Shown: positions 360-60,772 of the stretch, one piece after another
Position numbering within the stretch: position 1 is the first letter of the stretch
How the letters are laid out: every line of letters starts with the position of its first letter
IMG/VR virus record: IMGVR_UViG_2547132519_000001
Coordinates: 32,001 to 96,000 of that record
Reading direction: 5' to 3' (one strand)
From: a virus
Taxonomy: Duplodnaviria > Caudoviricetes
DNA length: 64,000 nt
Notes under the pieces: generated by a model
What the model was told of the DNA's origin: nothing
The model's input: only the letters and a program-made list of their open reading frames with translations
Databases searched by the model: none
Position numbers and translations under genes: made by a program

Positions 360-770
360 TTATATACCATGCCTTTCGTAATATAATGCCTTATTTTTGA
401 TATCAAATAGAGCAGTGCCAACCAGGGAATCTAAATACTCTTCAAAGTCTGAATTGGCTAATTTTAAACATCTATAAATAGAAGTAGATAACGCTTGGCA
501 TACTTTAGTTTTAGCCAGTTCTTTTACCTCATTCTGCTTTTCTGGAGTCCAGTCGCCGGTTTTTTTAATATCTTTTACCTCTACTTCATAAACCGATTTC
601 ACTGACTTGACGACTTCTTCATATAAGATGGAGGCATATTTATCCAGCTTTTTAGTTTCTAGCCAAGCATAAGTCTGTTTCCACGCATAACCCAAGATGG
701 GTACTAAAACAAGTGTCCAGATAGTTGATAAAACTTCTGAAATGTTTATATTCTGTAATACTTCATTCAT
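360..770 (-). CDS. Phage holin (LL-H-like)
   Basis: N-terminal TM (IWTLVLVPILGYAW) then charged helical tail; in late module. Confidence 0.6.
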   Translation of the reverse strand: MNEVLQNINISEVLSTIWTLVLVPILGYAWKQTYAWLETKKLDKYASILYEEVVKSVKSVYEVEVKDIKKTGDWTPEKQNEVKELAKTKVCQALSTSIYRCLKLANSDFEEYLDSLVGTALFDIKNKALYYERHGI

Positions 771-896
771 GTAGTTTTCTCCCATTTTATAAGGATAAAT
801 GGCAAACCTATCCTGGCTATTGGAAATTTCCTCACAGGTATGTTATCCACTTTTACGCCCATTGTCTTGAGCAACCCATTTATAGTGTCTCTTTCT

Positions 897-10629: not shown

Positions 10630-12480
10630 CTAATCATAAGATATTGAAGAAGAGCAGAGAGGGGCAGAAGAGTAATCAGTAGGTTGTTCATCTTGAGTAA
10701 TTATTTGTCCTCGTCTTAGTTCATACAACCGATGAGCCAACATAATTAGTACATAGAACCGATCATCATGCATAGAACCCTCTTTGTCTTTTGCCAAAGC
10801 ATAAGTCTTTGTTGTTTTGTCAGCATTCTCATATTTATATATTGACGTGGTTTCAAGCTTCATTAAATCAATGTTTGCTAAAGCAGAAATTTCTTTATCA
10901 GATAGTTCATATTTCTCAATTACCTCCTCATCTGAATCCTCTTGTTTTTTAGCCATCGATATAAATTCTTGTTTGAATTCGTATGGGAACTTTATTACAC
11001 CTAAATCCATCAGCTCTATAAATTCATCAACCATCTGTGTCCTATATTTTTTAGGACTAATCAGTTTCAACTTGTCGATAGCATTAGGGTAAAGTTCCTT
11101 ATATCCAGTATATATATCATGAGAAGCATCAATTAATCCCCTATGATGCCGCCCATCATCACCAGTCCAATCATTAAGTAGACCGTCAGCATACGTTGAA
11201 ACACCACCGCCTCCAGCTCCTTGGTCGATTAATAAGCAATCGATATTTTGATAATCATTATATTGCCCGTTATAAAGAGCAAGATATTTTCTGACTTCCG
11301 CTAACTGCCTGTTTGAATCTAATTTATAGCCTTTTTTACTGGCTTTATCAAATAAATTTGCACAGTTTACAATTTCTCCAATGTACCCGTAATTTGGATC
11401 GTTGACAATATTCATAGCTCCAAGAATTGAATTGTCTAGTGTTCTGGCGGGATCTAAAGCAAGACATATAGAAGTGTTTGGTTTGTATGATAATTGTGGA
11501 AGATAAAAGCATTCATTACGTCGTACCGTACCCCATTTAATAATTTGGTTGACTCCACCATCACGAGTGGGCTGATTATAGTATTCCCTTAATGCTTTTT
11601 CTCTGTTGGCTTTCATGGCTGCATCAACCTTGTCCTGCGTTAGTAGGGCCGTATATGGTTTTCCATCCATAAATGTCTTAATGGCCGTATCACATATCAT
11701 ATCCACAACTATGTAATCTCTGTCGCCAGCTATCATTCGCTTGGTGAAGTTCTTATAATGCTGATAGAAAATTTTACTCATGTCATCTTGTGACGAAGCA
11801 TAGACCAACTGCGTTGGGCATTTTCTTTTCAAGGTGTCAGGATTAAATCCTTTGGCAGTGGAGGTCTTGAATTCCGTATTCTGTGTCGCAAAAGCTTCAC
11901 AAACTGCAATAAGTTCATCTGAAGAGAATGCCGCTTCATCAAAGAATACCAAGGTTGCTCGACGTGATCTGTTATTATCAGGGTTTCCATTTAATGTAAA
12001 TATTTCGCTACCATTGTAAAATTCTACATGGAATCCTGACTGGGCATGTCCAAAACCAGTCTTATTATTACCTGACTTTTTGGTTTCCTTTTCAACAATA
12101 TCTTTGAGAGAATCAATAGATGCCGCTGTTTTACCTATACGAAGAACAATCTCTTCAATTTTTGAAAATGTTTCTTTTGACTGATCACCAACGGAGCTTA
12201 CAATATAAATTGCTTGATTTTCATACAAAATCGCTTTGAGAACCATAAAAATAGCACCCAAAAATGATTTTCCAAAGTTTCGGCTACAACACCACAAAAC
12301 ATGTGGTTTATTCCAACTTGCTTGCAGTATGTACTTCTGGCTATCTATGAGTTTTATACCGAGCAAATCTTCACATGCAATACAGGGGTTTCGTCTATAA
12401 TAAGCAATACTTTTAGCGTCTAACTCACAGATACGCTTTTTTCTCTCTGATATTAATTTATGATAAGCCATCGTCGACAC
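10630..12480 (-). CDS. Terminase large subunit
   Basis: Walker A SRNFGKS, Walker B VFFDEAA, nuclease motifs ALDPA and HDDR. Confidence 0.9.
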   Translation of the reverse strand: MSTMAYHKLISERKKRICELDAKSIAYYRRNPCIACEDLLGIKLIDSQKYILQASWNKPHVLWCCSRNFGKSFLGAIFMVLKAILYENQAIYIVSSVGDQSKETFSKIEEIVLRIGKTAASIDSLKDIVEKETKKSGNNKTGFGHAQSGFHVEFYNGSEIFTLNGNPDNNRSRRATLVFFDEAAFSSDELIAVCEAFATQNTEFKTSTAKGFNPDTLKRKCPTQLVYASSQDDMSKIFYQHYKNFTKRMIAGDRDYIVVDMICDTAIKTFMDGKPYTALLTQDKVDAAMKANREKALREYYNQPTRDGGVNQIIKWGTVRRNECFYLPQLSYKPNTSICLALDPARTLDNSILGAMNIVNDPNYGYIGEIVNCANLFDKASKKGYKLDSNRQLAEVRKYLALYNGQYNDYQNIDCLLIDQGAGGGGVSTYADGLLNDWTGDDGRHHRGLIDASHDIYTGYKELYPNAIDKLKLISPKKYRTQMVDEFIELMDLGVIKFPYEFKQEFISMAKKQEDSDEEVIEKYELSDKEISALANIDLMKLETTSIYKYENADKTTKTYALAKDKEGSMHDDRFYVLIMLAHRLYELRRGQIITQDEQPTDYSSAPLCSSSISYD

Positions 12481-13561
12481 CGTCCTCTACAGTGGACAAT
12501 TGCGATTTTAGCTCGTCAACCTGTATAAGTAATTGACGCACTTGTTCTTTTTTGTCGTCTAATTCTTTATATAAATCGTCTATGAGTTTTATTTGTATCT
12601 CGTATACCTCTTTTTTGTCGTTTTCATCAAATAGACAATGATCCAAAAGTGCCTTTTGAGATACTGAAATTGCCCACTGTGTTCCATCCCCGCTTAGTTG
12701 ATCATAATAATCAGCTTCTGCTTTGTCGAAATGCTTTTCTCGTAAATCGCGCATTAAATATGTCAATGTCGATTTGCCCACATCTTTATTAGATCTGTTT
12801 TTTACAGAAATCTCATTTTCTTTTGCGATTTTATCATTGCTAGCAACAAGATCTTTTTTTATAATATTAAGAGTCTTGATATCGTTAGCATCTTTAACAG
12901 GATCTAAATTTGCAATTCGCTTATCACAAACATGAATCTGTTTATTGTTATTGACGATTTGCAATATTTGAGAAAGTTTGTAAGCATCTTCAGCGGAGTC
13001 CTCATCTTCTAAATATGGTGCAAGCTGATTAAATAAGAAGCGTCTGTCTTCTTCTGGATAATCTTCAAATGGATCGTATCCAATAAGTTCAATGGCGTAA
13101 TCTCTATTTTGCTTATCTTGCTTAGACCATTTAACTTCTTTGTCTTGATCAAGTTCAATGGAAGTTTTAGCTATTTCACCTGCTAAAATTGATTGTGAAA
13201 AGTCTTGGTATTGATATTGCCGTCCGTTAATCTGACGCATATAAAGTCCCATACTAAAGTTGTTATTGGCTTTTATAATACTATCAAAAAGAGAGTAATA
13301 GTATGGAATATCAAGTTTATAACACATGAATATACATGCTGACTTAGTGTCGTATTTTTTCTCGTAATATGAAAAAAGTTCATTTACACAGTCTTTGCAG
13401 ATGTGTGTAAATTTTGAGTTTTTTGTAAAAGACTCCGACCATGGAGATTTATAAAATTTACCAACCGGATTCTCATAACTTTTTCCGCAACGTAGGCACG
13501 TATAAACGTGAGAATCGTCAAAGTTATCAGTCAAGTCAGCAACTTTGGGTTTTCTTGCCAT
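12458..13561 (-). CDS. Zn-finger protein, possible terminase small subunit
   Basis: CLRC and CKDC motifs; overlaps the terminase start. Confidence 0.55.
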   Translation of the reverse strand: MARKPKVADLTDNFDDSHVYTCLRCGKSYENPVGKFYKSPWSESFTKNSKFTHICKDCVNELFSYYEKKYDTKSACIFMCYKLDIPYYYSLFDSIIKANNNFSMGLYMRQINGRQYQYQDFSQSILAGEIAKTSIELDQDKEVKWSKQDKQNRDYAIELIGYDPFEDYPEEDRRFLFNQLAPYLEDEDSAEDAYKLSQILQIVNNNKQIHVCDKRIANLDPVKDANDIKTLNIIKKDLVASNDKIAKENEISVKNRSNKDVGKSTLTYLMRDLREKHFDKAEADYYDQLSGDGTQWAISVSQKALLDHCLFDENDKKEVYEIQIKLIDDLYKELDDKKEQVRQLLIQVDELKSQLSTVEDGVDDGLS

Positions 13562-13719
13562 TTACAATACCTCCTTTGCTGTTTGTATTAAAATAAGCAC
13601 TCACCGCGAGAGCAGTAGTGCTTGTTATAGTTCCTATATTTGATTTTCAAATGAAAGTGCAGACTCAACCATAAAACAGGAGAGGTTAGAAAGTATACCA
13701 CTCACAATGTAATATTTAC

Positions 13720-13959
13720 TTAGATTTTCTTCCATCCAAAAGAAAATAGCATATAAATTAGGACGTTTTCATTTTCATTTCCTACGCAACAGGTGCTACC
13801 CATAGGAGGATATACGTCAAAGTGTGGATCTCCACTAAATGGTCCACTAGCTTTACGTTTAGTTGTTGGAAGATATTCAATTTCCTCCTCTGTGTCTATA
13901 ACAAATTCACATAGGCTTACATTTGGTTTATCGCCAAATCTTAATAATGTTCCTGCCAT
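13720..13959 (-). CDS. Hypothetical protein
   Basis: ORF track; AGGAG-like SD. Confidence 0.6.
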   Translation of the reverse strand: MAGTLLRFGDKPNVSLCEFVIDTEEEIEYLPTTKRKASGPFSGDPHFDVYPPMGSTCCVGNENENVLIYMLFSFGWKKI

Positions 13960-13967
13960 AAATCTCC

Positions 13968-14177
13968 TTAATTAAAAACGAGATCGCTAGTAAAAGCAAT
14001 CTCTGTAACAACTTTAAGTTTTGTGATTGGAATTGTTTTCATTAATTCTTTTAATTTTGTCTCAACATCATCAAGAACAGTAGAAGAGAAGTCGGTAGTA
14101 GAAGTTTCATCGACCTTTACAAAAGACCAATATTCATATGCTCCATTTGACGTAGATGTCATAATTTTGTATGTCAT
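13968..14177 (-). CDS. Hypothetical protein
   Basis: ORF track; coupled to the endolysin stop. Confidence 0.6.
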   Translation of the reverse strand: MTYKIMTSTSNGAYEYWSFVKVDETSTTDFSSTVLDDVETKLKELMKTIPITKLKVVTEIAFTSDLVFN

Positions 14178-15055
14178 GTTGTGCTCCCGTCTGATAACCC
14201 TTTATAATCTAGGGCTCCGTCCTTCAAAGTTGAAAGTACAATTTCACCAGTCACCATCTTGCCCTCAGCGTCTACGGCATAGATTTTGCCAGAGTTTTCT
14301 ACTAACTGAGATGTGCACAAAGCTCCATCTGGGCCTAAATAATACCATGCACCCTTATGTTTATACCATGTATTTTTAATCATGTTACCGGCACCATCAA
14401 ACCAGTACCATTTTCCATCTGCTTTTACCCAATCATTACAGACAGGTAGCCCAGTATCACCATTATAATATCTCCAGTTGTCACCTTCTTGCTGCCAACT
14501 GAATTTCTTTGAGGGAGCATTAATTAAAGCCGATCTAAAATTACTCCATGTATTCTGTGTGTGATTGTAAACATATGGATTAGGACAAATTTTCCCGGTA
14601 ACGTCGTAATGTCTAATTACACGATCAATTGGGATATTATATAGGTTCATTAAATATCTGGTCAGCTCAATGGTTGATTCAATGGTGGAATCTTCAAAGT
14701 ACCAGTCCCTAGAATCGGCTGCTTTAGAATTACTATTTCTTACGCACATTTCAATGTTAATACAGTTTGCATTTTTAGCAATTCCGTACAGTGATCCACC
14801 TCCAGTAGATAATTTTGAACCTCCAACAGCCCAACAGTATCTTGCGATAGGATCTGGATTATACAGCCAGACATCTCCGGAGAATCCTACAAAAAAATCA
14901 GCAGAAGCATCTGTTGTTGTCCTCTGATTATAGTAATTTATGTTTGCCTTGGCGTCACCAGTGGCACCGACGTAATGTATAACTATGTATTCAATTTTTC
15001 CAGGGCGCACAGATGTATTGTGTGTTCCGAAATTTGGATTTCGATTTATATTCAT
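14174..15055 (-). CDS. Endolysin: N-acetylmuramoyl-L-alanine amidase (Amidase_2) with cell-wall-binding repeats
   Basis: IVIHY, IEMC, RHYDVTGKICP motifs; WYWFD/WYYLG repeats. Confidence 0.9.
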   Translation of the reverse strand: MNINRNPNFGTHNTSVRPGKIEYIVIHYVGATGDAKANINYYNQRTTTDASADFFVGFSGDVWLYNPDPIARYCWAVGGSKLSTGGGSLYGIAKNANCINIEMCVRNSNSKAADSRDWYFEDSTIESTIELTRYLMNLYNIPIDRVIRHYDVTGKICPNPYVYNHTQNTWSNFRSALINAPSKKFSWQQEGDNWRYYNGDTGLPVCNDWVKADGKWYWFDGAGNMIKNTWYKHKGAWYYLGPDGALCTSQLVENSGKIYAVDAEGKMVTGEIVLSTLKDGALDYKGLSDGSTT

Positions 15056-15180
15056 GTTTATTTTACTCCTTTCAATAAGATAGGAGAGTTGTTTGCTCTT
15101 CTTTAATTGGTTTAGGATTTTCCGTTCCTATGGCATAGGTTTAAGTCTCTATACCGACTTAAATTGAATCTGATAGGAAT

Positions 15181-15336
15181 TTAATCGTTAAATACTAATT
15201 CGTATTCGCCACCACATTCGCATATATCATCTTTGGTGCATACACACCAATTTTTATTGCTTTGCTCTTTGTTTCCAGTAAATTTTTTCCCGCACTCTTT
15301 ACATGCGAAATTTAATGGTTCTTTACGTTTTTTCAC
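15181..15336 (-). CDS. Small zinc-ribbon protein (51 aa)
   Basis: GTG start, AAGGAG SD; CKECG and CECGG motifs. Confidence 0.6.
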   Translation of the reverse strand: MKKRKEPLNFACKECGKKFTGNKEQSNKNWCVCTKDDICECGGEYELVFND

Positions 15337-15382
15337 TTATGTACTCCTTTTTATTTATTGGGTAATCAATGAAAGGCGGATT

Positions 15383-16414
15383 CTATATAAATGCTTCGTC
15401 TGATTCGTCAGACTCATCGTTTTTTATGATATAGTGATTTTTTGTGGTCGTTACATCATTATGACCTAATAATTTCTGCGCTACCTCTGCTGATTTATGC
15501 TCGTAAACCACTAAATTTGTAGCTCTTGACTCTCTAAATAAATGAGGATGCACCCGGCGACCAACAATCTCGGCAAATAAATCTGAACACCACCCATTAA
15601 ATGTAGATTCAGATACTTGCCTAACTGTTCCTGTTTTCTTCACCTTAATAACAAACATATATGGATTGTTGTCGTCTCCGCGTATTTCGAGCCATTTATT
15701 GAAAACTTCCATCACTTCTTGTCCGAATTTTAATTTTCTAGGCTTCCCAATAACAGAGGCTCCTTTACAACGTATAGTATGAGTTAAATATCTTTTAGAT
15801 ATAGCCTTTTGCTCATTACCATCCTCATCAATTACAGTAATTTCTTTTTCTGTTGCAGGATAATTCACAACTTCCTTTAAAAGCTGCCTTGCTTCAGCTC
15901 TACGGCAACCTGTGGAATATGAAAACATAAGATAAGCTAATTTCTCCCATTCTTCACGTTTCTCAAGTTCTTCACAGAGGTTGATATATTCGTCAGGTGT
16001 TAGTGGCTCCTTTGGGTGCACGTAACCAGTCTTGACCACCTTCATCTCTTTTGTGACGAAAGATCTGAATGTAGGATATTCTTCTTCATACATCATCATT
16101 ATGTAGTTACATATATTGCTCACCGCTGATTTCTTAAATTTGATTGCAGAATCGGATAACCCTCGGTTTGTCAACCAGTTCAGATATCTAACAAATTCCT
16201 TTTTCTTAATATCCAAGCAACTTTTATTTTTAAGATTATCTTTAACCCAATAAAAGAATATTTTAAGTGCTGATTCATACCCGATTTTTGATTTTACCGA
16301 CAATTCGGCTTGATTTTCCAGATACTCCTTTACCATTTCTCTGTTAAATTCATTTACCTCTTTCCACATCTCGTCGGTTACGTCGTCACTTCTTTTTGCA
16401 ATTTTGGTTTCCAT
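15383..16414 (-). CDS. Tyrosine recombinase (core-binding plus catalytic domain)
   Basis: TGCRRAE, HPHLFR, LLGH...TTKNHY catalytic residues present. Confidence 0.9.
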   Translation of the reverse strand: METKIAKRSDDVTDEMWKEVNEFNREMVKEYLENQAELSVKSKIGYESALKIFFYWVKDNLKNKSCLDIKKKEFVRYLNWLTNRGLSDSAIKFKKSAVSNICNYIMMMYEEEYPTFRSFVTKEMKVVKTGYVHPKEPLTPDEYINLCEELEKREEWEKLAYLMFSYSTGCRRAEARQLLKEVVNYPATEKEITVIDEDGNEQKAISKRYLTHTIRCKGASVIGKPRKLKFGQEVMEVFNKWLEIRGDDNNPYMFVIKVKKTGTVRQVSESTFNGWCSDLFAEIVGRRVHPHLFRESRATNLVVYEHKSAEVAQKLLGHNDVTTTKNHYIIKNDESDESDEAFI

Positions 16415-16486
16415 ACATTCATCACTTCCCCTCTTTATTAATAAAAATAAGCCCGTATCCTTTGACAGATACGAACCTTCATATAA

Positions 16487-16630
16487 TCAATCTAGCTTTT
16501 CTAACAATGTTTCAATAGTCATCACTTCACCGATAGATACGCATTTATCTTGGCATGCTTCCAGTGCCTCTTTCAAAATTGAAATCTCATCGTCCGTAAG
16601 ATCGATGGTCTTTGTTGCAATATTATACAT
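16487..16630 (-). CDS. Small hypothetical protein (47 aa)
   Basis: MYNIATKTIDLTDDE...; AGGTGG SD. Confidence 0.55.
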   Translation of the reverse strand: MYNIATKTIDLTDDEISILKEALEACQDKCVSIGEVMTIETLLEKLD

Positions 16631-16645
16631 TTTTTTCACCACCTA

Positions 16646-18773: not shown

Positions 18774-18846
18774 CTGGCCAAGTAGGAATTGAACCCACGA
18801 CACTTTGCTTAACAGGCAAATGCTCTACCAACTGAGCTATTGGTCA
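18774..18846 (-). tRNA. tRNA-Asn(GTT)
   Basis: Cloverleaf: D arm GCTCAGTTGGTAGAGC, anticodon arm TTTGC-CTGTTAA-GCAAA, T arm GTGGGTTCAATTCCTAC; one acceptor mismatch; no encoded CCA. Confidence 0.9.
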
Positions 18847-19466: not shown

Positions 19467-22214
19467 TTACATTTTTTTATTTCTGTATCTTTTAACATTA
19501 TCAGCTATTTTTCGTTTTCGATGTTTTATGTAACAATTCTCGCATCTCTCAGTATTTGTGTCTTTTATGTCTATCTCTATATATTCCCCACAATCAATAC
19601 ATTGAATAAACTTAGTTTTCTTAATCTGAATATTTTTTTCCAAATTATTTACAATGTTCTGTCCATAGCAAAACCAGAGCAGTTGCTTGTATCGTTTTTC
19701 GTGTCCATATAAATATTCCACTAACATATCTGTAATGGTATCTTCCGAATAACCTGTTTTGCAAAACCTATCCCTAATTTTGCAAGCTACATACCTTAAG
19801 TTGTCTACATACTCATCTTTCATATTTATCATATAACGATATTTTCTATTTAGTTCGTCATGTAGATTGGCAACTTCTTCACTACAAATAGTATTTACAT
19901 TACCCATTAACAAATGATAATCAATAGAACCGAGATTTAAGCCTTTTGTGTTAATAGTTTTATTGGGAATTCTATCAAAGATCTTATTAACAAAGCTCTG
20001 ATTTCTTAATTCAACCTGTTCCTTTTCTTTATCCTTAGCATACTTAAAAAAGCCAGGTAGTTTCTTTTTGGTGAATTCTTGAATCTCCTCATTTATATGT
20101 TTTGGGAATTCGGGCTTATATAGAGTTTTTGCGTAATCAATTACAAAGTTGTTTTGACAACATAGTCGTTTAACACAATCGACGGCATGTTGTTTTTCTG
20201 TTTCTGTGCCATGAATAAACACATCATCATTCCATATTTTAGAAATATTATTACTATATATGCCAATGTTGCCTCCGGTAAAGGCCGCATTGAGTCCAGA
20301 GTAAATGTTTTTGCTATTTAATTGCATGGGTTCTGCTTTACGCATATTATAGTAAAGCGGTACAACCCCATTCATATTACGTTCTGCAATTGCTATAAAG
20401 CTAGAATCTGCTACAACCAAACTTTTATCACCGTCAACATCAAACTGGAGAATTTTACTTATTAAATCGTGAACACTGGTATAAATAGCATTAGTGGTAA
20501 ACCATTCTTCAGTTTTCAATACTCGATCCCCATAACCGTCGCTCGCAACATTAAACCTTATAGCATGTTCTTTGTATAAATGTGGACTTCTTAAGCAATC
20601 CAATTTATCACTTTTTTTGAAGAGATTACAAAAAACTTCTTTGTTTGATAACAAACCATTAGGTTGCTCTATACCTTCAAACCAATATTCACATGCCGCA
20701 TAAAAATCTGGAAGTAAAAAAGTATACTTGCCAACCACCTCAAGCTTACCACTACGATATTTCTTTAAAAGACTATCTTTAACCTCACGAATCACATCTT
20801 TTGCATATGTGTCTGATAAAAGAGAAGGATATATCTTGATGGCTTTTTGAAATGGAGTCATTTTTGTGTTGTATGGAGTAACCCCCAATATATTTAACAT
20901 AGTATCTTTTGACGTACATACACTCTCTATTTTTTTAGCAGATTTTTGTACCAACGTATCTATTTCAGAATCACTTATGTTCGTTAGAGTTTGAAGCATT
21001 TGATAATTAATTTTTGCATTCTTAACTCTATCTTCTTCAACATTACAAATACCGGCTGTACAATTATATTTTTTATAAAAGGTTTTATACTCATCCCACG
21101 AATCATAATATTTTTGCATTTTAAATTGGCTTTTTGTAAAGATTACTTGTATATCTTCTTTGATTATATCGTGTTCTTTTCCATAAATATCTTTAATAGT
21201 TGAAGGGCAATGGTTAATTTCAACAAATCTTCTAAAATCAAATACCCCTAGTAAGCCTTTAACCCATGGTGCACGAAACATAAAATTCTTTTTGCTTACG
21301 CTTGGTAACATCATACCTGCACCGTCAGTATGAGGAATTGGGACATAATCTGTTTTTCTGGTAATGGAATAATCAGATTCGTCTATAAAATCAAAAGTGC
21401 CATATACATTCGTTTCAAAATCATCAATTACAATTGATTTATCAATGTCAAATTCTTCCCATAGATCTGTTGCAGAATTAGTGAGAGCCATATATGCAAG
21501 GTGTTTATTAACATTGTTTCCACCTTTGGAGTTGATTTTATCAATAGTTAATCCACACATTACAGTTTTTTCAATACGGTTCCAGATAGAATCTTTTATA
21601 AAAACTGCCTTTTTCTTACGAATCTGACCAGCCGATGAAGTAAAATACTTATATTTTTCACCTTTATATGTAAATCCATAATAAGATAGATCTTTAAATA
21701 CATCAAAATAATATACCTGTATAACCATTAGTGCATCGGTAAGCTCATCTTGCTTTATTCCAATCGTTCTGGTAAGTGCAGAATCGAAAACAGAAATCAC
21801 ATTGTTATCGGTTAAGCAATTATCCCTTATTTCTCGTATATGGTCTTTCCCATTTGTTATTTCATTTTGATAGATCTTATTAGATAGGAGAGAAAGCAAT
21901 TTTTCCTTTGATTCATTCGCTTTCTTTCTTTTATGAATTATAAGTTTATTCCATTTTACATATTCTTTTATAGTTTCCATATGTTCTGGTAATATCTCAG
22001 TTTCAACTTCTTCAGATTTGTTTGACTTTAATAATTTAATATCTTTTTTAGTATATCCATATTCGTTCAACCGTTTTTCTAAATCAGCAAGTTTATTATT
22101 TAAATAATTACGTTCTCTACGATACTTACAGTTCATATCGTGTAAATATTTCTCGTGATTACTATAAAAATGACCAGTATCGACAGAATAAATGTTACAT
22201 TGTTTATCTAGCAA
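19467..22214 (-). CDS. yonO: YonO-like single-subunit DNA-dependent RNA polymerase
   Basis: 915 aa; TDGAG, RAPWVKG, RSPH and QFDVDGD (DxDGD) motifs; C-terminal CxxC..CxxC; upstream of late genes as in SPbeta. Confidence 0.85.
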   Translation of the reverse strand: MLDKQCNIYSVDTGHFYSNHEKYLHDMNCKYRRERNYLNNKLADLEKRLNEYGYTKKDIKLLKSNKSEEVETEILPEHMETIKEYVKWNKLIIHKRKKANESKEKLLSLLSNKIYQNEITNGKDHIREIRDNCLTDNNVISVFDSALTRTIGIKQDELTDALMVIQVYYFDVFKDLSYYGFTYKGEKYKYFTSSAGQIRKKKAVFIKDSIWNRIEKTVMCGLTIDKINSKGGNNVNKHLAYMALTNSATDLWEEFDIDKSIVIDDFETNVYGTFDFIDESDYSITRKTDYVPIPHTDGAGMMLPSVSKKNFMFRAPWVKGLLGVFDFRRFVEINHCPSTIKDIYGKEHDIIKEDIQVIFTKSQFKMQKYYDSWDEYKTFYKKYNCTAGICNVEEDRVKNAKINYQMLQTLTNISDSEIDTLVQKSAKKIESVCTSKDTMLNILGVTPYNTKMTPFQKAIKIYPSLLSDTYAKDVIREVKDSLLKKYRSGKLEVVGKYTFLLPDFYAACEYWFEGIEQPNGLLSNKEVFCNLFKKSDKLDCLRSPHLYKEHAIRFNVASDGYGDRVLKTEEWFTTNAIYTSVHDLISKILQFDVDGDKSLVVADSSFIAIAERNMNGVVPLYYNMRKAEPMQLNSKNIYSGLNAAFTGGNIGIYSNNISKIWNDDVFIHGTETEKQHAVDCVKRLCCQNNFVIDYAKTLYKPEFPKHINEEIQEFTKKKLPGFFKYAKDKEKEQVELRNQSFVNKIFDRIPNKTINTKGLNLGSIDYHLLMGNVNTICSEEVANLHDELNRKYRYMINMKDEYVDNLRYVACKIRDRFCKTGYSEDTITDMLVEYLYGHEKRYKQLLWFCYGQNIVNNLEKNIQIKKTKFIQCIDCGEYIEIDIKDTNTERCENCYIKHRKRKIADNVKRYRNKKM

Positions 22215-22226
22215 TTTTTTCCTCCA

Positions 22227-22775
22227 TTAAATACCATTGCATTCCCAAAAGTCTTCCATTGAATCATATCCACAACCAACTATGCAATCACAAAACATCT
22301 CGTAACCGCAAGCGGCATCATTTGCTTTATTTAAACATTCATCGTGATTATCGCAATGTCTGCAAGATGGAATTTTGTCACAATTTTCTTCTGCAAACTT
22401 ACAAGTAGTCCAATTTTTTATAAAATCATCTATGTCGCTTATTTCTTCGTCTTCTGATTCAGTAATCTCTAATCCCTTTTCAAAACAATTAAGCTCGTAT
22501 TCATACCTGTCTATGTATTTCTTGAAGAACCCATCAGTTAGGAGATCCGTTACATATTTTGCCATATCTCGCTTAATAGACTTCATATCAGATTCCATTA
22601 TAACGTTAGCTGCTTCTTCAATCAGGTCCCATTTCTCAACTGTATTATCGCGCAGTCGGAGAGTAGTATAATATTTTTTCTTCTCTTTATCCCACCTTGC
22701 CATAGCGATAACTGTATACCCGTTCTGTAAATCTATTGAAATTATTACGTTTGCCTCCGTTACATATCTAAGCAT
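22227..22775 (-). CDS. Hypothetical protein, Cys-rich C-terminus
   Basis: ORF track; GGAGGTG SD. Confidence 0.65.
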   Translation of the reverse strand: MLRYVTEANVIISIDLQNGYTVIAMARWDKEKKKYYTTLRLRDNTVEKWDLIEEAANVIMESDMKSIKRDMAKYVTDLLTDGFFKKYIDRYEYELNCFEKGLEITESEDEEISDIDDFIKNWTTCKFAEENCDKIPSCRHCDNHDECLNKANDAACGYEMFCDCIVGCGYDSMEDFWECNGI

Positions 22776-22977
22776 TTATTTCACCTCCATTTTTTAGTCT
22801 ATCTCTATTTTCATAATTTTTAATACACTGTATATCAAATTTCATATCAGAAATAATCCGTCCTGCAATATCACTCATTGTTGAGAAACCTCGATACTCT
22901 GTATTAAAGCTTTCTACATTAATAACACCTCCATATGTTCTGTGATTTCTGTTTGTATATGTATTTGTTCCTGTCAT
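22768..22977 (-). CDS. Hypothetical protein
   Basis: ORF track; AAGGAG SD. Confidence 0.65.
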   Translation of the reverse strand: MTGTNTYTNRNHRTYGGVINVESFNTEYRGFSTMSDIAGRIISDMKFDIQCIKNYENRDRLKNGGEINA

Positions 22978-23088
22978 GTAATTTGTAATTCTCCTTTTAT
23001 ATTTAGTTTTTTGTTATTGTTTCTTTCATCATTGACCGCCTTTCTGGTGATCAGTGATTGATATAACTATGATTGGTTATTCTCTGTT

Positions 23089-24045
23089 TCATGTACTTAT
23101 AAAGTCGTATTTCTCAAAAACATTTACATCTCGTATTTTTTCTAAATAATCGTCGTAACCATCTTTTTCATATAACATTTCATATTTCTTATTCTCTGAA
23201 ACTACATAGTCATATATGGTTTTAATCTCATGCTTTGAATATTTTTTGTCGTTTCCTTTTAATAATTGGACATACATTTGAGCTAGGCGACGATTATTAT
23301 TAACCGTATTGATGTTCCTTTTAACATATTTATAAGACTCTTTGTATTTTTGGCCTTGTAATACGAAACTATCTATGTATTCTCTATCGCACGGTCTACC
23401 ATACGCATTTGATAGTTGACGTATTTTTTTATCATCGGTAATCACAAAATCATTTTGCCTATTGACATAGAGGAGTCCGATGTCTTCAAGAATTTTGTTA
23501 TACTCGACTATAGATCGTTCTGATATTCCTGATATTTGTGATATGTAGTCAATCGTGAAATTTCCAACGACATGATTCTTCGATATATACGGGTCTAGCC
23601 AAACCTCAATTTTTGAGCTGATTGTACTTATGATAAATATGAAATATTTTAATAGAAGAAAGTTATTGGTATTTTCAACATGAAATATTTTACGCACTTC
23701 ATCAAAGGTGATCATTGTATACTTTGAATTTTTAAATTCAATCCAAAGTGGAGAGCAGTCTAATATGTAACACTTGTTTATTTCTCCTATTTGACTAACA
23801 ATTGATTCTTTAATTAGCTCGTCTAATCCACACCTTATAAAATTCACTTTATATTTGGTTGGCTTAACATCTTCAAACAGGTAATAGTAAATTTGTTGCG
23901 GCGTTATACAATGTTTCTTAAATGTAGGTGAGTTTAGTGCTTGCAAAGCACAATAGACTCCTATCGCATAATTGGATATAGCTGGTGAGTTAGAAATATA
24001 GTCCGGTATGAACAGATATTTATCTTTATTGTCATCTTGGTTCAA
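23089..24045 (-). CDS. Winged-HTH protein, replication-initiator-like
   Basis: TIDYISQISGISERSIVEYNKILEDIGLL wHTH; inverted repeat upstream. Confidence 0.55.
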   Translation of the reverse strand: MNQDDNKDKYLFIPDYISNSPAISNYAIGVYCALQALNSPTFKKHCITPQQIYYYLFEDVKPTKYKVNFIRCGLDELIKESIVSQIGEINKCYILDCSPLWIEFKNSKYTMITFDEVRKIFHVENTNNFLLLKYFIFIISTISSKIEVWLDPYISKNHVVGNFTIDYISQISGISERSIVEYNKILEDIGLLYVNRQNDFVITDDKKIRQLSNAYGRPCDREYIDSFVLQGQKYKESYKYVKRNINTVNNNRRLAQMYVQLLKGNDKKYSKHEIKTIYDYVVSENKKYEMLYEKDGYDDYLEKIRDVNVFEKYDFIST

Positions 24046-24305
24046 AATGGGATAGAAACTCCTTTCTCCTTATAAAATAAGGATTTAAACTTATCAGGGT
24101 GCAAAAAACAGTCAATTTTGAAAATCTAAGTCCATAGACGTTTGAAAAAAAATTAGCCAAAAGTGACCGAAATTTGCAGTGTATTAATTAGTTACTGAAT
24201 ATTAATTAGTAAATGATTATAAGGCGTCTCTCTATTTAGATTGTTTGGAGAGTGGAATTTAGGTACATGGTTATATTCTCTGTTTAAATATTTCTTCTCT
24301 CTGTA

Positions 24306-24512
24306 TTAGATATTACTGTAATTCTGTAATCCAGTTTTAGTGGAATATACAATTGATCCATCTTTAGTGTATGTAACTCTATCAATGTGGTAATCAAAGC
24401 AATGGTCATAGAATGTGTCACCTGGCTTTGGAGTTGTGTACTTTGGTAAGTTGAGATTAGATGATTGATAATGATATTGCTGTTGTGGCAGCTCTCTAGT
24501 GTAAATCATCAA
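24306..24512 (-). CDS. Hypothetical protein
   Basis: ORF track; AAGGAGG SD. Confidence 0.55.
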   Translation of the reverse strand: MMIYTRELPQQQYHYQSSNLNLPKYTTPKPGDTFYDHCFDYHIDRVTYTKDGSIVYSTKTGLQNYSNI

Positions 24513-25402
24513 AATGGTTGTCCTCCTTATAGATATTTTTTTGATTGAGTGTCTAATACTTAGTTCTCTTATGAAAATATAAATCTTTACAAATTTAACA
24601 AAGATACTACCGCCTTACACAATCGTTCCGATTGTTTCAGTTGCTTGGCTTCCATGCTACGCATGTCATCCAGGAATGTTGTTTCTATTGAAAAAACTAA
24701 TAATATATCTCTAGATTAATGGTGAGGCTTGTAGTGCAATATGTATTTATCTATTTAAATGTAAAAGTATGCCCCTCTGTAGTCGTAAGCTTATGTGCTT
24801 CTATAGGTAAGAATTGAAGATTTAGAATTGAATTTTAGCCAATAAAAAATAGGCATGATGATCTATGCCTACATATTAAGGAATGTTCGGTTTGTTTAAA
24901 GTGAGGATAAGGAAAAGTAGATAATCTGACAAATCGGTACTATTTAAAAATGAATTATTATTGAGCTGTATGTTACCACTTCGAGAGAGTGGTATTTTTT
25001 GTGCTGCTAAATATGGGATTCATATTGATTTACTTGAGATATGTGTAATTTGTGTAAATAGGAGATGGGTGATCAGAGATGGTGATTCAGCCAAAATTGA
25101 GCTGAATTCGGGAAAGGCTTGGATTTATAGGGGATTTCTAAGATTTGCGTGATGATATTTATAGATTTGAGAATAATATAAATTATCTGATAATTATTTT
25201 GCATTATATTATAGAGAGAATCGGGATTTTGCTCGAAGTGTGCACCGAAGTGTTTTGATGAATTGTGTGTGTAAAAAATACAATTGTAATGTAAATTTTA
25301 ACATAATGTGTGGATGGAACTGATAGGGGGATAATCGAAAATGAAAACCATTTTCAAAATGTAAACCTACCCCCTATAGCTAAAATGTGCTGTAAATTAA
25401 GG

Positions 25403-42528: not shown

Positions 42529-42933
42529 TTGATAAACGAAAATCAAGTTGTTGACTATATCTGTAAATATTTAGAGGACAATAAATATACTGTTGATGAG
42601 CATCGAAATACCTATGAAAGGGGTTATGACATTGTCGCATTTAGCAAAGACGGTAAAAAGCTAATTATTGAAGCCAAGGGTGGTACAAGTTCAAAGCCTG
42701 GAACAAATCGTTTTGGGAAGGATTTTGATAGTAAACAAGTTAGACATCATATTGCTATGGCACTTTATGCGGTTGGTAAAGCCATAACCTCTGATCCGGA
42801 ATGTGAAGTTGGTATTGCAATACCTAAAAACGATGAACACATAAAGGCTTTGAAAAGAATACGGAAGGTTATTGATGTTCTGACGATTAGAGTTTATTGG
42901 GTTTCCTCTAATGGTGAAGTTACTGTTGAATAA
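42529..42933 (+). CDS. PD-(D/E)XK restriction-endonuclease-fold protein
   Basis: E...GYDIVA...IIEAKG motif. Confidence 0.75.
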   Translation: MINENQVVDYICKYLEDNKYTVDEHRNTYERGYDIVAFSKDGKKLIIEAKGGTSSKPGTNRFGKDFDSKQVRHHIAMALYAVGKAITSDPECEVGIAIPKNDEHIKALKRIRKVIDVLTIRVYWVSSNGEVTVE

Positions 42934-42976
42934 TCATAATGAAACTAGGGATTTATTTAAAAAGAGGGGATTATCT

Positions 42977-43567
42977 GTGAAATTACTTAATTACTACCGC
43001 ACCATTGAAAAATTCTGGCATATTGGGGAGAAATGGGATAAATTATCTCCTTCAGAAAAAAACGCTATTGAGTTTGCTCACACAAATATAAATCCAGAAC
43101 CAAATCGAATGGCTGCTGATGGAATTCACTACTCTTTAGAATATTGTCTTGCACATTCGGGGGAAAGAATCAATGAAAGATATCGTCGTGACAGGCCAGA
43201 TCCGATTGATTTACAGATTGCTGATATGATTGCTAACCATAGAACTAAAATTCCCGTCGTACTTTATCGGGGCGTATGTGAAGCTGTCTTTCGTAAGATG
43301 TGTGAAAATGCACAACATATAGACAATGCTGATTTTTATGAAAAAGCATTTTTACAAACATCTCTTGTAAAAGGACATGAAATCAAGTCACAATACCACT
43401 TGAGAATCTACGTACCAGAGGGGGCACAGGCAATTTATTTGGGAAATGTGAACTACGAACAGAAATACTATGAAGTAGTTTTGCAGTGTGGATCAAGGCT
43501 CAAAATCATTTCCATGGACAATAAATATATAAATTGTAGGCTTTTATTAGAATATGAATATAAATAA
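42977..43567 (+). CDS. ADP-ribosyltransferase (VIP2/exoenzyme-like, R-S-E type)
   Basis: VLYRG, FLQTSL, YYEVVL motifs; GTG start after GAGGGG SD. Confidence 0.75.
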   Translation: MKLLNYYRTIEKFWHIGEKWDKLSPSEKNAIEFAHTNINPEPNRMAADGIHYSLEYCLAHSGERINERYRRDRPDPIDLQIADMIANHRTKIPVVLYRGVCEAVFRKMCENAQHIDNADFYEKAFLQTSLVKGHEIKSQYHLRIYVPEGAQAIYLGNVNYEQKYYEVVLQCGSRLKIISMDNKYINCRLLLEYEYK

Positions 43568-43591
43568 TTGATTTAATATTATGGGGGAAGC

Positions 43592-44917
43592 ATGGATACA
43601 ACTGACGATATTCTGAATAGACAAGTTTTTCTGGAAAACCTAAAAAAAATAGTGGAGATGCTATCTAATGAAAGAAAAAGTAGCACGTTTGCAATTAACG
43701 GTGAATGGGGAAGTGGTAAATCGTTCGTACTAAAACGCTTTATAGAAGATATTGAAAATATTCAATCAGAAGATACGGTGTCGGAGAAATATTTAGTATT
43801 TTATTATGATTGTTGGAAATATGATTATTATGAAGAACCATTAATCGCAATTATAGCAGCGATGTTTGAAATGGCAGAAGAAAAGTTAAAGTTTCTTAGT
43901 ACAACATATGATAAAACAATGAAAGCGACTTGGAATACTGTAAAGAATAGCTTGGAAACTATAGCTGGAGAGTTTTGTAAAAGCAAAATAGGATTTGATC
44001 CATATAAGTTTATAGGTGATGTAAAAAAGGAATATAAGGAGGTAACAAATAGTAGACACGAATTTGATAATATGTTTTCTTTTAAATTAACTCTTGATAC
44101 TATAAAAAAACAATTGCAGAGATTAGCAAATAATCATACTATTATTATTATAGTTGATGAAATCGACAGATGCTTGCCAGTATATGCGATTAAAATACTC
44201 GAGCGATTGCATCATACTTTTTTTGATATTAAAAATGTTATAGTGATAATAGCAGTTGATGGTGATCAATTGGATAATACAATCAAACAAATTTATGGGC
44301 AAAATACCAACGTCAATAGATATCTTAAAAAATTTATAGATTTCAAATTAAACTTAGATATAGGCAAGACTAATTTAAATTATGCAGAAAAATATTTATC
44401 TTATTTTAGTAAATTCTATGTTAACTCAGAATTATATGAAGTAATGGAGGTCCTAGCAAGTTTACTTGATAATATTGATATGAGAACACAAGAAAAGTTG
44501 TTCAATAAGGCCGATACTATACATAGGATTGTTAGTAGTGAGAAAAATGATATCTCTTTGTTATTTTTTGAAATGATGTGGATAATTTTGACTTATAAAC
44601 AAGATTCTCAAAATCTTAGGTGGGTAGTAAGTGGGGATAACAGTTTTAAAATTACTAGAAGTGAAAATGACATGGAAATTAAAATTAAGGAAATTGCTGA
44701 TCAATATTGTGGGCCTTCTTGCGCAAGAATTGATGGTAAAGATTATTTAATTGTTAAAAATTCAGCGGTGGGTAAGTCGTTTTTTTACTTATCTTCAATA
44801 TACAATAATTTAGAAAATGGTACTTGTGGAATCCACTTTTTTGATAACGCAAATGAATTAATGGATGAAATATTAAAGGCTCAGAATTTTGTTTCTCTGA
44901 CGTACCTAATTCAATAA
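43592..44917 (+). CDS. KAP-family P-loop NTPase
   Basis: GEWGSGKS Walker A, IIIVDEIDRC Walker B, YLKKFID. Confidence 0.9.
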   Translation: MDTTDDILNRQVFLENLKKIVEMLSNERKSSTFAINGEWGSGKSFVLKRFIEDIENIQSEDTVSEKYLVFYYDCWKYDYYEEPLIAIIAAMFEMAEEKLKFLSTTYDKTMKATWNTVKNSLETIAGEFCKSKIGFDPYKFIGDVKKEYKEVTNSRHEFDNMFSFKLTLDTIKKQLQRLANNHTIIIIVDEIDRCLPVYAIKILERLHHTFFDIKNVIVIIAVDGDQLDNTIKQIYGQNTNVNRYLKKFIDFKLNLDIGKTNLNYAEKYLSYFSKFYVNSELYEVMEVLASLLDNIDMRTQEKLFNKADTIHRIVSSEKNDISLLFFEMMWIILTYKQDSQNLRWVVSGDNSFKITRSENDMEIKIKEIADQYCGPSCARIDGKDYLIVKNSAVGKSFFYLSSIYNNLENGTCGIHFFDNANELMDEILKAQNFVSLTYLIQ

Positions 44918-45192: not shown

Positions 45193-46794
45193 TCAAATAG
45201 TACCTTTATTCAAGCCACAGGATTTTTGCATTGCTTCTGACCAAGGCATCAGTTCTTCCAGGATACTATCGGGCTCATTTTTGTAGTCCAGCATCTTAGT
45301 CATAACTGTTTCCAGATAAAGACGGATGTTTAATCCATTTGCTTTGGCTGTTTCTGCAAGCGTGTAAACAATTGCACTTGCTTTGGCACCTTTTACAGTG
45401 TCATGAAAGAGGAAGTTTTTTCTTCCCATAACATATGATTTCACGGCTCTTTCAGCTGCGTTATTACTAATGGAGCATCTTCCATCAAGGAGGTAATTCT
45501 CCATATACGATTTTTGGTTTTGGGCATAGTTAATTGCCTTGGCAAGCTTTGATCCGCCAAGGGCATTTATCCCATTCACCCACTTCCAGAATGCATCCAG
45601 TACAGGTCGCTCCAGTTCAAGACGCTTTTTCTGTCGCTCTTCTGGTTCTAAGTCTTTCAGTTCTTTCTCTATCTGAAAGAGTTGGTTGCAGTAGGAATAG
45701 CCTGTGTAGGCTTCAGATTTTTCGGAGCATGATCCCTTCTTCTTGGGAATCGCTTCGAACATATATCTTCGAAGATGTGCCCAGCACCCGCATCGGGTAA
45801 TGTCACTCAAACGGTTGTATCCGCTGAAGCCGTCCGTATGGACAAACCCGTGATAATCAGCAAGGAACTTTGCTGCATGATAGCCGCCCCTTGATGGTTG
45901 ATACTCGTAAAGCACAATCCGGTGCTCTTCAAATGCACCGCTGGTGTACAACCATATGTAAGACTTTGATTCTGGAGTCTTGCCATCTTCATTCAAAACC
46001 TGGCATGTCGTCTCGTCTACATGAATGACGGACTGCCTAAGAAGATACTCATGATATCTCTCATAAACGGGTTCCAGATATTCTTCTGCGCATGTATTGA
46101 ACCAGCTGGCAATGGTTCCACGATTCAGCTTGACTCCCAGCTGTGCCCAATCCTGCTCCTGACGATAAAACGGAAGATAGTTCGTACACTTCTGATACAT
46201 GATGTAAGAGACCGCTGTAGCAGAAGCCATACTGTGATTGATGAGTGGCTTTGGCACAGGTGCCTTCTCAATGGTTGAATCACCATCTTCACGGCACTGT
46301 GGACATGCATAGCTATGCTGTACGTATTGGACACGTTCCACTTTTGCTGGAGTGATATGAATCTCTTCACGAACAACTTTGGAGCCGATATCTTCCATTT
46401 TAGTATTACAGTAAGGGCAGTTACGAGAATCACCTTCCAGTAAAAGCTCAATGGTCCTTATCGGTACATTTTTTGTAAGTTCATCATGCGTAGCACGGGA
46501 TTTTTTCTTCTCATGCGCTGTCACATTGATCATTTCCGGTTCGTGAACGTGTTCATCAATTCCCAACTGATCGAACAAGCTGAGTTGTCCGTCAATGTAA
46601 GGTAAGTTCGATGATTTCTCACTGGAAATACCAAAGATTTTTCGTTTCAGTTCATTAATTGTTTCCGTGAGGTTTGCAATGGTCTGGTTTAATTGTTCCA
46701 TCTGATGATCTTTTGCTTCCAGCTGTTTGAGCAGATTACTGACCAGCAGATTCATGTTAAGATCTTCGGTTTCAACAGACTTTTTCATGACCAT
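45193..46794 (-). CDS. tnpC: IS66 transposase TnpC
   Basis: Leucine zipper, CPYC/CPQC finger, HVDET, CWAHLRR, NNAAER. Confidence 0.95.
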   Translation of the reverse strand: MVMKKSVETEDLNMNLLVSNLLKQLEAKDHQMEQLNQTIANLTETINELKRKIFGISSEKSSNLPYIDGQLSLFDQLGIDEHVHEPEMINVTAHEKKKSRATHDELTKNVPIRTIELLLEGDSRNCPYCNTKMEDIGSKVVREEIHITPAKVERVQYVQHSYACPQCREDGDSTIEKAPVPKPLINHSMASATAVSYIMYQKCTNYLPFYRQEQDWAQLGVKLNRGTIASWFNTCAEEYLEPVYERYHEYLLRQSVIHVDETTCQVLNEDGKTPESKSYIWLYTSGAFEEHRIVLYEYQPSRGGYHAAKFLADYHGFVHTDGFSGYNRLSDITRCGCWAHLRRYMFEAIPKKKGSCSEKSEAYTGYSYCNQLFQIEKELKDLEPEERQKKRLELERPVLDAFWKWVNGINALGGSKLAKAINYAQNQKSYMENYLLDGRCSISNNAAERAVKSYVMGRKNFLFHDTVKGAKASAIVYTLAETAKANGLNIRLYLETVMTKMLDYKNEPDSILEELMPWSEAMQKSCGLNKGTI

Positions 46795-46882
46795 GTACCT
46801 CCTTGAATGATATACTTATTATACCACAAAGGAGACCGCAAAGCCAGTAAATAAGCGGTTCTGCGTGTACTTTATCAGATGC

Positions 46883-50448: not shown

Positions 50449-50496
50449 GTGTATCATAGAAATTGGAAATTTAAGGAAAGGAGAATGCGGATTACT

Positions 50497-51487: not shown

Positions 51488-51559
51488 ACCTCATTAGCCA
51501 AGTGGTAAGGCACAGGATTTTGACTCCTGGACTCACTGGTTCGATGCCAGTATGAGGTG
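51488..51559 (+). tRNA. tRNA-Gln(TTG)
   Basis: Acceptor ACCTCAT/ATGAGGT, D arm GCCAAGTGGTAAGGC, anticodon arm CAGGA-TTTTGAC-TCCTG, T arm ACTGG-TTCGATG-CCAGT. Confidence 0.85.
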
Positions 51560-60771: not shown

Positions 60772-60772
60772 C

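Follow-up and report, generated by a model that had tools for sequence, protein, structure and literature searches.

A conserved motif at the 3′ end of a late-operon tyrosine recombinase borders a variable, endolysin-containing interval in an SPbeta-like Lachnospiraceae prophage

Introduction

The closest described counterparts of the locus studied here come from the Tyrovirus group of Bacillus phages, named for its three tyrosine recombinases. According to the available text of PMC9703825, one recombinase gene of these phages is followed, immediately 3′ of its stop codon, by 11-bp inverted repeats around a 6-bp core, which the authors proposed as a putative attP. Here we describe a homologue of this gene, REC, which encodes a Cre/Xer-type two-domain recombinase in the late block of an SPbeta-like Lachnospiraceae prophage with a YonO-type RNA polymerase. 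REC lies within a 64,000-nucleotide (nt) stretch of DNA, hereafter the window, that spans bases 32001–96000 of the 134,298-bp virus record IMGVR_UViG_2547132519_000001 (IMG/VR class provirus, 82% complete). Its stop codon is embedded in a short motif (site 1), another short element (site 2) stands before the terminase operon, and between the two lies an interval that contains the endolysin gene. The initial annotation of this DNA took the arrangement for a cassette locus with an attI-like site and a swappable endolysin. Comparison with relatives supports that interpretation in part: both motifs are conserved and specifically placed, the interval varies in content and homology breaks at the motifs, and site 1 is most likely the cognate core site of REC, whereas the likeness to integrons does not hold.

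REC is homologous to gp50 of the Tyrovirus group (gp227 of Tsamsa, gp50 of Thrax1) and to ORF131 of Lactococcus phage 949, with 41–47% identity over at least 93% of the length. Like REC, these proteins are co-transcribed with late genes and have an extended β-hairpin after the first catalytic arginine (Arg-I). A short putative site directly 3′ of the stop codon is likewise described for gp50 in the available text of PMC9703825, and we saw its inverted repeat in the Tsamsa sequence. The settings differ, however. The homologous gene of Tsamsa and 949 is placed after the neck genes and just before the tape measure, whereas REC lies between the HU gene and the terminase. The Tsamsa site is a clear 11–6–11 (or 15-nt-arm) inverted repeat, whereas that of the window is 6–6–6 with a weak left arm, and phage 949 has no intergenic room for a site. 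A variable accessory slot beside the gene is not described for Tyrovirus in the available text of PMC9703825.

Several better-known systems resemble the locus in part. Cre/loxP of P1 is likewise a single two-domain recombinase with a short site beside its gene in a large phage, where it is not a classical integrase, and Cre is among the best fold matches of the REC model. The loxP site, 13–8–13, is perfectly symmetric. Unlike P1, the phage described here also carries Ku and an ATP-dependent ligase. The elements that exploit XerCD/dif (integrative mobile elements exploiting Xer (IMEX) and pdif modules) also have a 6-bp spacer and accessory DNA flanked by recombinase sites, one of which is often degenerate; they use host Xer enzymes and 11-bp arms, whereas the enzyme here is phage-encoded and the arms are short. 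Integrons too place a tyrosine recombinase beside a variable gene array. There, attI lies 5′ of the divergently transcribed intI and each cassette ends in a folded attC, whereas in the window the motif is 3′ of REC, the genes are co-directional and no attC-like repeats were seen between them. Finally, the promoter-stem-loop repeats that flank the hyperplastic regions of T4-like phages are, like sites 1 and 2, short conserved intergenic elements that border exchangeable blocks; they are present in many copies and act by homologous recombination, in contrast to the one or two copies next to a recombinase seen here.

Results

REC is a conserved member of a family of late-operon recombinases

REC has no arm-binding domain. 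It matches PF00589 (3.2e-17; 63.3 bits against a cut-off of 27.1), PF02899 (1.8e-6) and the integrase family phrog_1 (3.1e-34). Residues R171/R172, K217, H291, H318 and Y328 are invariant in both REC alignments (8 and 27 sequences), and R294 is conserved except for a lysine in L046, a relative with 32% identity; from motif positions in the tyrosine recombinase family we take these residues to fill the R-K-H-R-H/W-Y catalytic roles. In an AlphaFold2 model (predicted local distance difference test score 78.8), REC is predicted to comprise a helical N-terminal domain, a linker and a catalytic domain, and a Foldseek search with this model gave XerA (8e-9), Tn1549 Int (1.2e-8) and Cre (1.6e-8) as top folds, with IntI at rank 42. 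The initial annotation had noted an insertion after the first catalytic arginine. It is present, the Arg-I helix and the G-K-x-R strand being 36 residues apart compared with 11 in archaeal XerA (4a8e), and is modelled as a long β-hairpin (residues 188–215) between Arg-I and the catalytic lysine. Rather than a peculiarity of this copy, it is a family trait, common to all close REC relatives and 10 residues shorter in Tsamsa and 949.

REC had matches in 156 phage records, and in 154 these spanned 80% or more of its length. The best were in 160–170-kb Tsamsa-like Bacillus phages (45–47%) and the Lactococcus 949 group (41%), with 47% identity to Tsamsa and 41% to 949, each over 96% of the length; others occur in Staphylococcus, Enterococcus and Lactobacillus phages. 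By sequence similarity, REC is thus a member of the family of late-operon recombinases that includes Tsamsa gp50/gp227 and Lactococcus 949 ORF131.

Relatives were gathered as 43 viral loci, 6 genome loci and 50 metagenome loci (L numbers below denote individual loci). The closest are prophages, L055 on a 300-kb Lachnospiraceae contig (REC 95% identical) and L052 in a complete Lacrimispora chromosome (92%), while the closest metagenome relative is no nearer than 79%. REC is 64–95% identical in most relatives and 32–54% in the distant or partial loci L046, L056, L057, L097, L103, L105 and L106. Neighbouring genes are present as far more divergent alleles: identities range over 23–90% for the large terminase subunit (TerL) and 21–75% for the RNA polymerase, and in some relatives the polymerase at the same place is only 21–25% identical to that of the window. 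The comparison with MT835469 illustrates this, with REC at 73% and the polymerase, exonuclease, HU, TerL and portal at 21–27%. On these sequence comparisons, REC is an island of conservation (64–95%) in a mosaic gut-phage group, with neighbours at 21–35%.

A conserved motif follows the REC stop codon

The TAG stop codon of REC (15385–15383) falls inside the left hexamer of site 1, to which a deletion in the window's clade has moved it. In many lineages the stop is directly followed by a motif that fits WTRRAW-N6-TTTCAW, for example ATAAAT-CTCCAA-TTTCAT, ATAGAA-CTCCAA-TTTCAA and TTAGAT-TCCCCA-TTTAAA, and in L043 it is a near-perfect palindrome, CACTTTGAAA-CTACAA-TTTCAAGTG. The distance from stop to motif varies from 0 to approximately 22 nt, and the DNA beyond the motif is unrelated between lineages. 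Using three 13-nt exemplars with up to two mismatches, a site 1-like motif was found after the REC stop in 19 of 56 distinct contexts, compared with 1 of 380 control windows placed at seven other offsets; since the exemplars were drawn from the same set this count is not independent, yet the placement is specific. The motif is found in the basal REC clade and several others, and is absent from the MT835469-like, L047-like, L010-like and L013-like clades.

The claim that a conserved element marks the recombinase 3′ end therefore stands for REC, and has a precedent in the same family in the available text of PMC9703825. It does not extend to the second tyrosine recombinase of the window, a fragment (47937–48521) with no such motif 3′ of its stop. 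Within single genomes the post-stop sequence gave little: its best self-matches were within the shuffled range in all 28 loci tried, and ATAGAA-N6-TTTCAT with up to two mismatches matched the window 56 times against 30 expected, site 2 not being among the matches. The yonN–yonK gap of SPbeta holds no similar motif.

A second element stands before the terminase operon

Site 2 is a variant of the 18-mer TTGAATCTGCGCTTTCAT and lies 90 nt upstream of the start of the terminase-small-like gene (13561). At up to two mismatches, TTGAATCTGCGCTTTCAT occurs on the gene strand only, between +1572 and +3917 after REC and before the terminase, in six lineages (the window, L055, L052, L041, L020/L070/L089 and L100). 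The 18-mer is identical in L055, L052 and L041 though both flanks differ, and each of four genomes searched held one perfect or one-mismatch copy. It is found with three terminase alleles and with REC clades of 72–95% identity and thus follows neither, nor does it co-vary with site 1. In the lineages with the c13–c14–c18 gene set, two or three site-like elements stand in series, namely TTRRAW-GAATTG-TTTCATTGG in five lineages and TTWAAA-TAAGCA-TTTCATTGGG in two. No sigma-70-type promoter was found at site 1 or site 2.

The positions of both sites on the minus strand, and the gene content between them, were as first annotated; the idea that the same site stands at both ends fared less well. Apart from TTTCAT, a hexamer present 151 times in the window (118 ± 11 expected), the two have little in common there, and their likeness within the window is at chance level. 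The pattern TC[CT]G-N1-3-CTTTCATT matches only sites 1 and 2 in the whole record, but was drawn from those two. A one-base gap aligns sites 1 and 2 as GAATCCGC-CTTTCATTG and GAGTCTGCACTTTCATTTG, and the spacers differ in sequence (TCCGCC and CTGCAC) and, when the GARTC/TTTCAT flanks are aligned, in length (6 and 7 nt), which makes present-day recombination between site 1 and site 2 unlikely. What does stand is conservation across relatives, in which both motifs are kept and specifically placed, and which is more than chance.

Terminator-like hairpins precede the HU, REC and terminase genes in the window. A hairpin with (C)TTAATTTATT before the terminase ribosome-binding site is also found in L005, L009, L018, L027, L031, L032, L038, L047 and others; its stems differ completely between lineages, so that the structure is kept and the sequence is not. 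The element is terminator-like, yet leaves no room for a promoter after it.

The interval between REC and the terminase is variable, with breakpoints at the motifs

REC and the terminase-small-like gene are separated by as little as 58 nt without any gene (L006, L044 and L045) and by up to approximately 7 kb (L015/L016), making this one of the most variable stretches among the relatives; the interval is not invariant, and the cassette interpretation thus survives the first test set for it with the initial annotation. Its contents elsewhere include GIY-YIG and other endonuclease-like genes, a GmrSD_N-domain protein, Bro-N, AntA, TnpB, tail-collar proteins, a ToxN-like open reading frame (ORF) and tRNA genes; L055 has two tRNA genes in the interval, and several relatives have tRNA-like sequence just before the terminase. 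In L052 a 260-aa ORF directly follows site 1 on the opposite strand, which fits a REC-linked element better than a promoter. In the window the zinc-ribbon-like ORF is the first gene after REC, and it is replaced by other DNA in L005, L055, L052 and a silage relative. The endolysin is found in this slot only in the nearest relatives: L005 (73%, with a Hol44 holin), L052 (77%), L055 (75%, C-terminal 108 aa only) and two silage-metagenome contigs. The L055 protein has a different N-terminal domain, only the cell-wall-binding part being alike. The endolysin was correctly annotated as lying far (approximately 13 kb) from the holins, the holin-like ORF being 13.4 kb away. The idea of a swappable endolysin is thus supported in part, by the variable slot and its breakpoints, with the endolysin itself confined there to the closest relatives. 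No site-like or repeated elements were found between the four interval genes, and no attC-like hairpins were seen, only terminator-like ones.

Homology breaks close to both motifs. The REC block ends at window position 15367/15368 in comparisons with L005, L052 and L055, the silage contigs diverge at 15365 (in one, 1949 nt separate REC from the lysin, as against 366 in the window), and in 10 of 11 close pairs that reach past the stop codon the block ends 15–23 nt after it. L008 and L061, whose REC DNA is 99% identical, diverge directly after CTCCAATTTCA. Loci with this downstream motif showed no further copy of it near the terminase. On the other side, the terminase-side block shared by the window and L055 (88%) starts at 13670, two bases before site 2, and that of L041 and L020 starts at the first base of the 18-mer. 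A joint between site 1 and site 2 was not seen in the contigs of four sequencing runs, in which assembly hides rare joints.

Two further features of the interval were observed. The 5′ leader of the endolysin gene is conserved between the window (15056–15102, minus strand) and L005 (11480–11526), and its CTCCT can pair with the AGGAG ribosome-binding site, forming a hairpin that may control translation. Downstream of REC, L005 has a long non-coding stretch that looks structured (11050–11480; no Rfam match), as do the MT835469-like loci directly after the gene, and SPBc2 has a like stretch (L108, 11824–13504) in the same relative place after the HU gene, in a gap of 1.7 kb. The available text of PMC5467207 says that this SPbeta gap holds an unannotated RNA.

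REC is not the integrase of the prophage

We rejected REC as the prophage integrase, as phage genes flank it on both sides in the L052 and L055 prophages, with the terminase 2.3–4 kb downstream. In the Lacrimispora chromosome (G001), a 459-aa tyrosine integrase lies next to host genes at the prophage end, 84 kb from REC; a thymidylate synthase–NrdD–NrdG–dUTPase block ends at the same prophage edge, with this integrase. The ORF scan of the window's record likewise closes, at the right end, with NrdD, NrdG and a cut dUTPase ORF, and host flank is not seen anywhere in the 134,298 bp. On the side of the Lacrimispora prophage opposite the 459-aa integrase, 68–74 kb from REC, two large serine recombinases (L109, 7220–8794 and 12464–14056) stand beside host genes with a LysM/GH18 gene between them; they may mark the other end of the prophage or a separate element, and they are, like the 459-aa enzyme, candidates for integrating the phage.

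Genome context

The Ku and ATP-dependent ligase genes lie at the left of the record (L048; 984–2683 of the record, G000), where they form an end-joining pair. They are followed by minus-strand tail and head genes, many small plus-strand genes, two IS66 copies and, at the right, replication and nucleotide genes. On the minus strand, from 24 kb down to 0.4 kb of the window, the order is the YonO-type RNA polymerase, an SbcD-like exonuclease, HU, a 51-aa ORF, REC, four small-to-medium genes including the endolysin, then terminase, portal, head genes and the holin-like ORF (table 1). REC thus shares its strand with the HU, terminase, portal and head genes. On the strength of its YonO-type polymerase we group this Lachnospiraceae prophage with the SPbeta-like phages. 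The gene order of SPbeta, polymerase–HU–…–terminase–portal, matches that of the window, but SPbeta has no recombinase where the window has REC.

Table 1. Features of the recombinase–terminase region of the window.
Feature	Position	Strand	Basis or remark
Holin-like ORF	360–785		phrog_13712; 13.4 kb from endolysin block
Terminase large subunit	10630–12480	−	phrog_2 1.9e-20; Pfam Terminase_6N 1e-4
Terminase-small-like gene, 367 aa, first of packaging/head operon	12458–13561	−	position before TerL; phrog_3314; 98% identical in L055
Terminator-like hairpin with T-rich tail, directly before ribosome-binding site of terminase-small-like gene	13595–13623	−	
Site 2, TTGAGT-CTGCAC-TTTCAT	13651–13668	−	sequence
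79-aa ORF	13720–13959	−	48–51% identical to small same-slot ORF of 14 MT835469-like loci
69-aa ORF	13968–14177	−	no Pfam/phrog match; covered by silage contigs
Endolysin, N-acetylmuramoyl-L-alanine amidase with choline-binding repeats	14174–15055	−	Pfam Amidase_2 1.9e-17, Choline_bind_3
51-aa CxxC zinc-ribbon-like ORF	15181–15336	−	no Pfam/phrog match
Site 1, ATAGAA-TCCGCC-TTTCAT(TG)	15367–15386 (core 18-mer 15386–15369)	−	sequence
REC, 343-aa two-domain tyrosine recombinase (SAM-like core-binding and catalytic domains)	15383–16414	−	Pfam, phrog_1
Terminator-like hairpin between 51-aa ORF and REC	16449–16478	−	
51-aa ORF directly upstream of REC	16487–16642	−	48–74% conserved in several lineages
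YonO-type single-chain RNA polymerase, 915 aa	19467–22214	−	phrog_8308 3e-249; Pfam RdRP; 46% identical to SPbeta YonO

Other features of the record were noted in passing. The two IS66-family copies (window 45193–47595, minus strand; G000 22190–24592, plus strand) each have ORFs of 121, 117 and 533 aa, and the window copy adjoins the 194-aa fragment of the second tyrosine recombinase. A nicotinamide adenine dinucleotide (NAD) salvage and synthesis set lies at window 60250–63778 (plus strand), comprising isochorismatase-family, phosphoribosyltransferase-domain, NAMPT-like and NAD synthase genes, with an NAD-dependent ligase further on (L050, 18441–20000). Between the NAD and replication genes are an ABC-transporter permease, an ATPase and an NMT1/OmpA-domain protein (G000 96739–100992; L050 1239–5492). 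Conflict-type genes are found at window 42911–44917, 50449–50853 and 51633–53675 (all plus strand) and at G000 111783–112811 (minus strand); the set includes an ADP-ribosyltransferase-domain ORF beside a KAP NTPase, a MazF/PemK-like ORF, a reverse transcriptase and a 680-aa fusion of sigma-70 region 2 with a GmrSD_N domain. An Rfam scan of the window, L005, L055 and L052 returned nothing but tRNAs, with tRNA genes at window 18774–18846 (minus strand) and 51488–51559 (plus strand) and at L055 11355–11428 and 12420–12504.

Discussion

We favour, with moderate confidence, the reading that the motif 3′ of the REC stop codon (WTRRAW-N6-TTTCAW) is a putative recombinase site of REC. This draws on the gene-plus-site arrangement shared with 47%-identical homologues that are located elsewhere in their genomes, together with the 6-bp spacer, the L043 palindrome, the single-copy motif and the opposite-strand ORF of L052. 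REC dimers would then bind site 1 during lytic growth, cleave at the motif and recombine site 1 between sister or co-infecting genomes, in a resolution reaction like those of Cre/loxP or Xer/dif. As a by-product, site 1 would be a preferred crossover point at which downstream DNA is exchanged or captured, so that the gap between REC and the terminase would become a hot spot for accessory genes, the endolysin in this clade, and REC may in this way have had a part in creating the variability. At the terminase border, site 2 would be a related second element or what is left of one; as its spacer is unlike that of site 1, the block would be stable within one genome and exchangeable between genomes.

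Several observations weigh against a recombinase site. At the two-mismatch threshold the motif is absent from 37 of the 56 REC contexts, the largest clade included. The dyad of site 1 in the window is weak (ATAGAA against ATGAAA, a 4/6 match), and an inverted repeat after the stop was not reported in the window or in 14 scanned relatives. TTGAAW-N6-TTTCAW (6–6–6) matches the 134-kb record 44 times against 14 in shuffles, and such a common architecture means little by itself; a looser pattern mostly catches reverse complements of ATGAAA gene starts. Within one genome the likeness of sites 1 and 2 is not significant and the spacers differ, while site 2 is confined to its six lineages and co-varies with neither REC clade, terminase nor RNA-polymerase allele. 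Not every breakpoint falls at a motif: L042 and L043 (REC 96% identical) part at the stop codon, a silage relative parts at 13726 rather than at site 2, and L055–L052 homology continues through site 2 to the terminase start. Moreover, where a conserved element stands beside a conserved gene, a BLAST block ends there by construction, and the homing endonucleases, TnpB and tRNA genes found in the slot of relatives can produce variability without REC.

A tentative alternative, possible but clearly less probable than the recombinase site, is a regulatory role for the motifs, as operators of a dimeric regulator or as late promoters used by the YonO-type RNA polymerase. They would mark the starts of late transcription units, REC would act elsewhere or on another site, and the interval would vary by homologous or illegitimate recombination in dispensable DNA, helped by homing endonucleases, whose genes are frequent in the slot. 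All motif copies are intergenic, co-directional with the genes and ahead of gene groups, two or three stand in series in the c13–c14–c18 lineages, and a promoter would be a natural left border for an exchangeable module; in addition, the available text of PMC5467207 places the single YonO promoter of SPbeta, its sequence undefined, just downstream of the HU gene, an equivalent place. This explanation sits less easily with the lack of a sigma-70-type promoter at either site and of a similar motif in the SPbeta yonN–yonK gap, with the presence of only two copies in the 134-kb record and one site 2 copy per genome, and with the opposite-strand ORF after site 1 in L052. The motif occurs with polymerase alleles only 22–24% identical to that of the window, yet is missing in L028, whose polymerase is 73% identical, and the L043 palindrome, with the gene-plus-site pair of Tsamsa at a different genomic place (in the available text of PMC9703825), ties site 1 to the recombinase. 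Chance resemblance of sequences without function, with post-stop conservation reflecting shared ancestry of the REC 3′ flank, would account for a generic, common architecture and for a shared part at chance level within the window. It is very improbable, given that the site 1 sequence is kept while its distance from the stop varies from 0 to approximately 22 nt among unrelated flanks, that controls gave 1 in 380, and that three genomes whose flanks differ on either side have the same site 2 18-mer.

The remaining explanations give REC a different task. That it is the prophage integrase and site 1 its attP we regard as extremely improbable: the phrog_1 'integrase' label, and the putative attP that the Tyrovirus authors assigned to the homologous site (PMC9703825, available text), would fit, but REC stands 2–4 kb from the terminase with phage genes on both sides in L052 and L055, a separate 459-aa integrase occupies the prophage/host junction in G001, and records and papers on the homologues, including the available text of PMC9703825, place the gene in the structural module. 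An active integron-like system, with REC capturing and excising cassettes at an attI-like 3′ site and site 2 as the distal cassette site, is the picture first proposed for this locus. A variable interval with motifs at both borders and a recombinase alongside would suit it, as would the elements in series in some relatives, but we consider it improbable. The four genes have no site-like elements between them and attC-like hairpins were not seen, the two spacers are unlike in both sequence and length, the site stands 3′ of a co-directional gene in a position and orientation unlike those of integrons, IntI ranks behind XerA, Cre and Tn1549 Int among the fold matches, and it would be costly for the phage to express an endolysin-deleting enzyme late.

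An extension of the favoured reading, in which site 1 is acted on by REC, appears doubtful to us in its full form: REC and short sites with conserved arms and different spacers (TCCGCC, CTGCRC, CTCCAA, TAAGCA and GAATTG were seen) may constitute a natural cassette-exchange slot before the packaging operon. As sites with unlike spacers cannot recombine together, the block would be stable within one genome; relatives that have the same sites would, on co-infection, trade entire blocks through a double site-specific crossover, and a circular DNA could be captured by way of a matching site. The exchanged blocks would include the endolysin, holin, anti-repressors, tail-fibre genes and tRNAs. Such a slot, if real, would amount to a phage-encoded equivalent of engineered recombinase-mediated cassette exchange and would differ from integrons.

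The recombinase family and the site after its stop codon are already in print for Bacillus phages in the available text of PMC9703825, the only paper on this recombinase family that our literature searches found. Those searches did not find the Lachnospiraceae SPbeta-like group, the position of the recombinase before the terminase, or a variable, endolysin-holding slot whose borders coincide with the motif and a second element. Should the motifs prove to be promoters, a YonO-type polymerase would for the first time have candidate promoter sequences.

Many large Firmicute phages have conserved tyrosine recombinases that are expressed late (156 phage records, 43 viral and 50 metagenome contigs), and REC borders a slot with lysis, anti-repressor, tail-fibre and tRNA genes. 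Activity of REC at the neighbouring motif, if real, would give the family a function and account for some of the modular mosaicism in these phages, and it might provide Lachnospiraceae genetics with a small recombinase/site pair.

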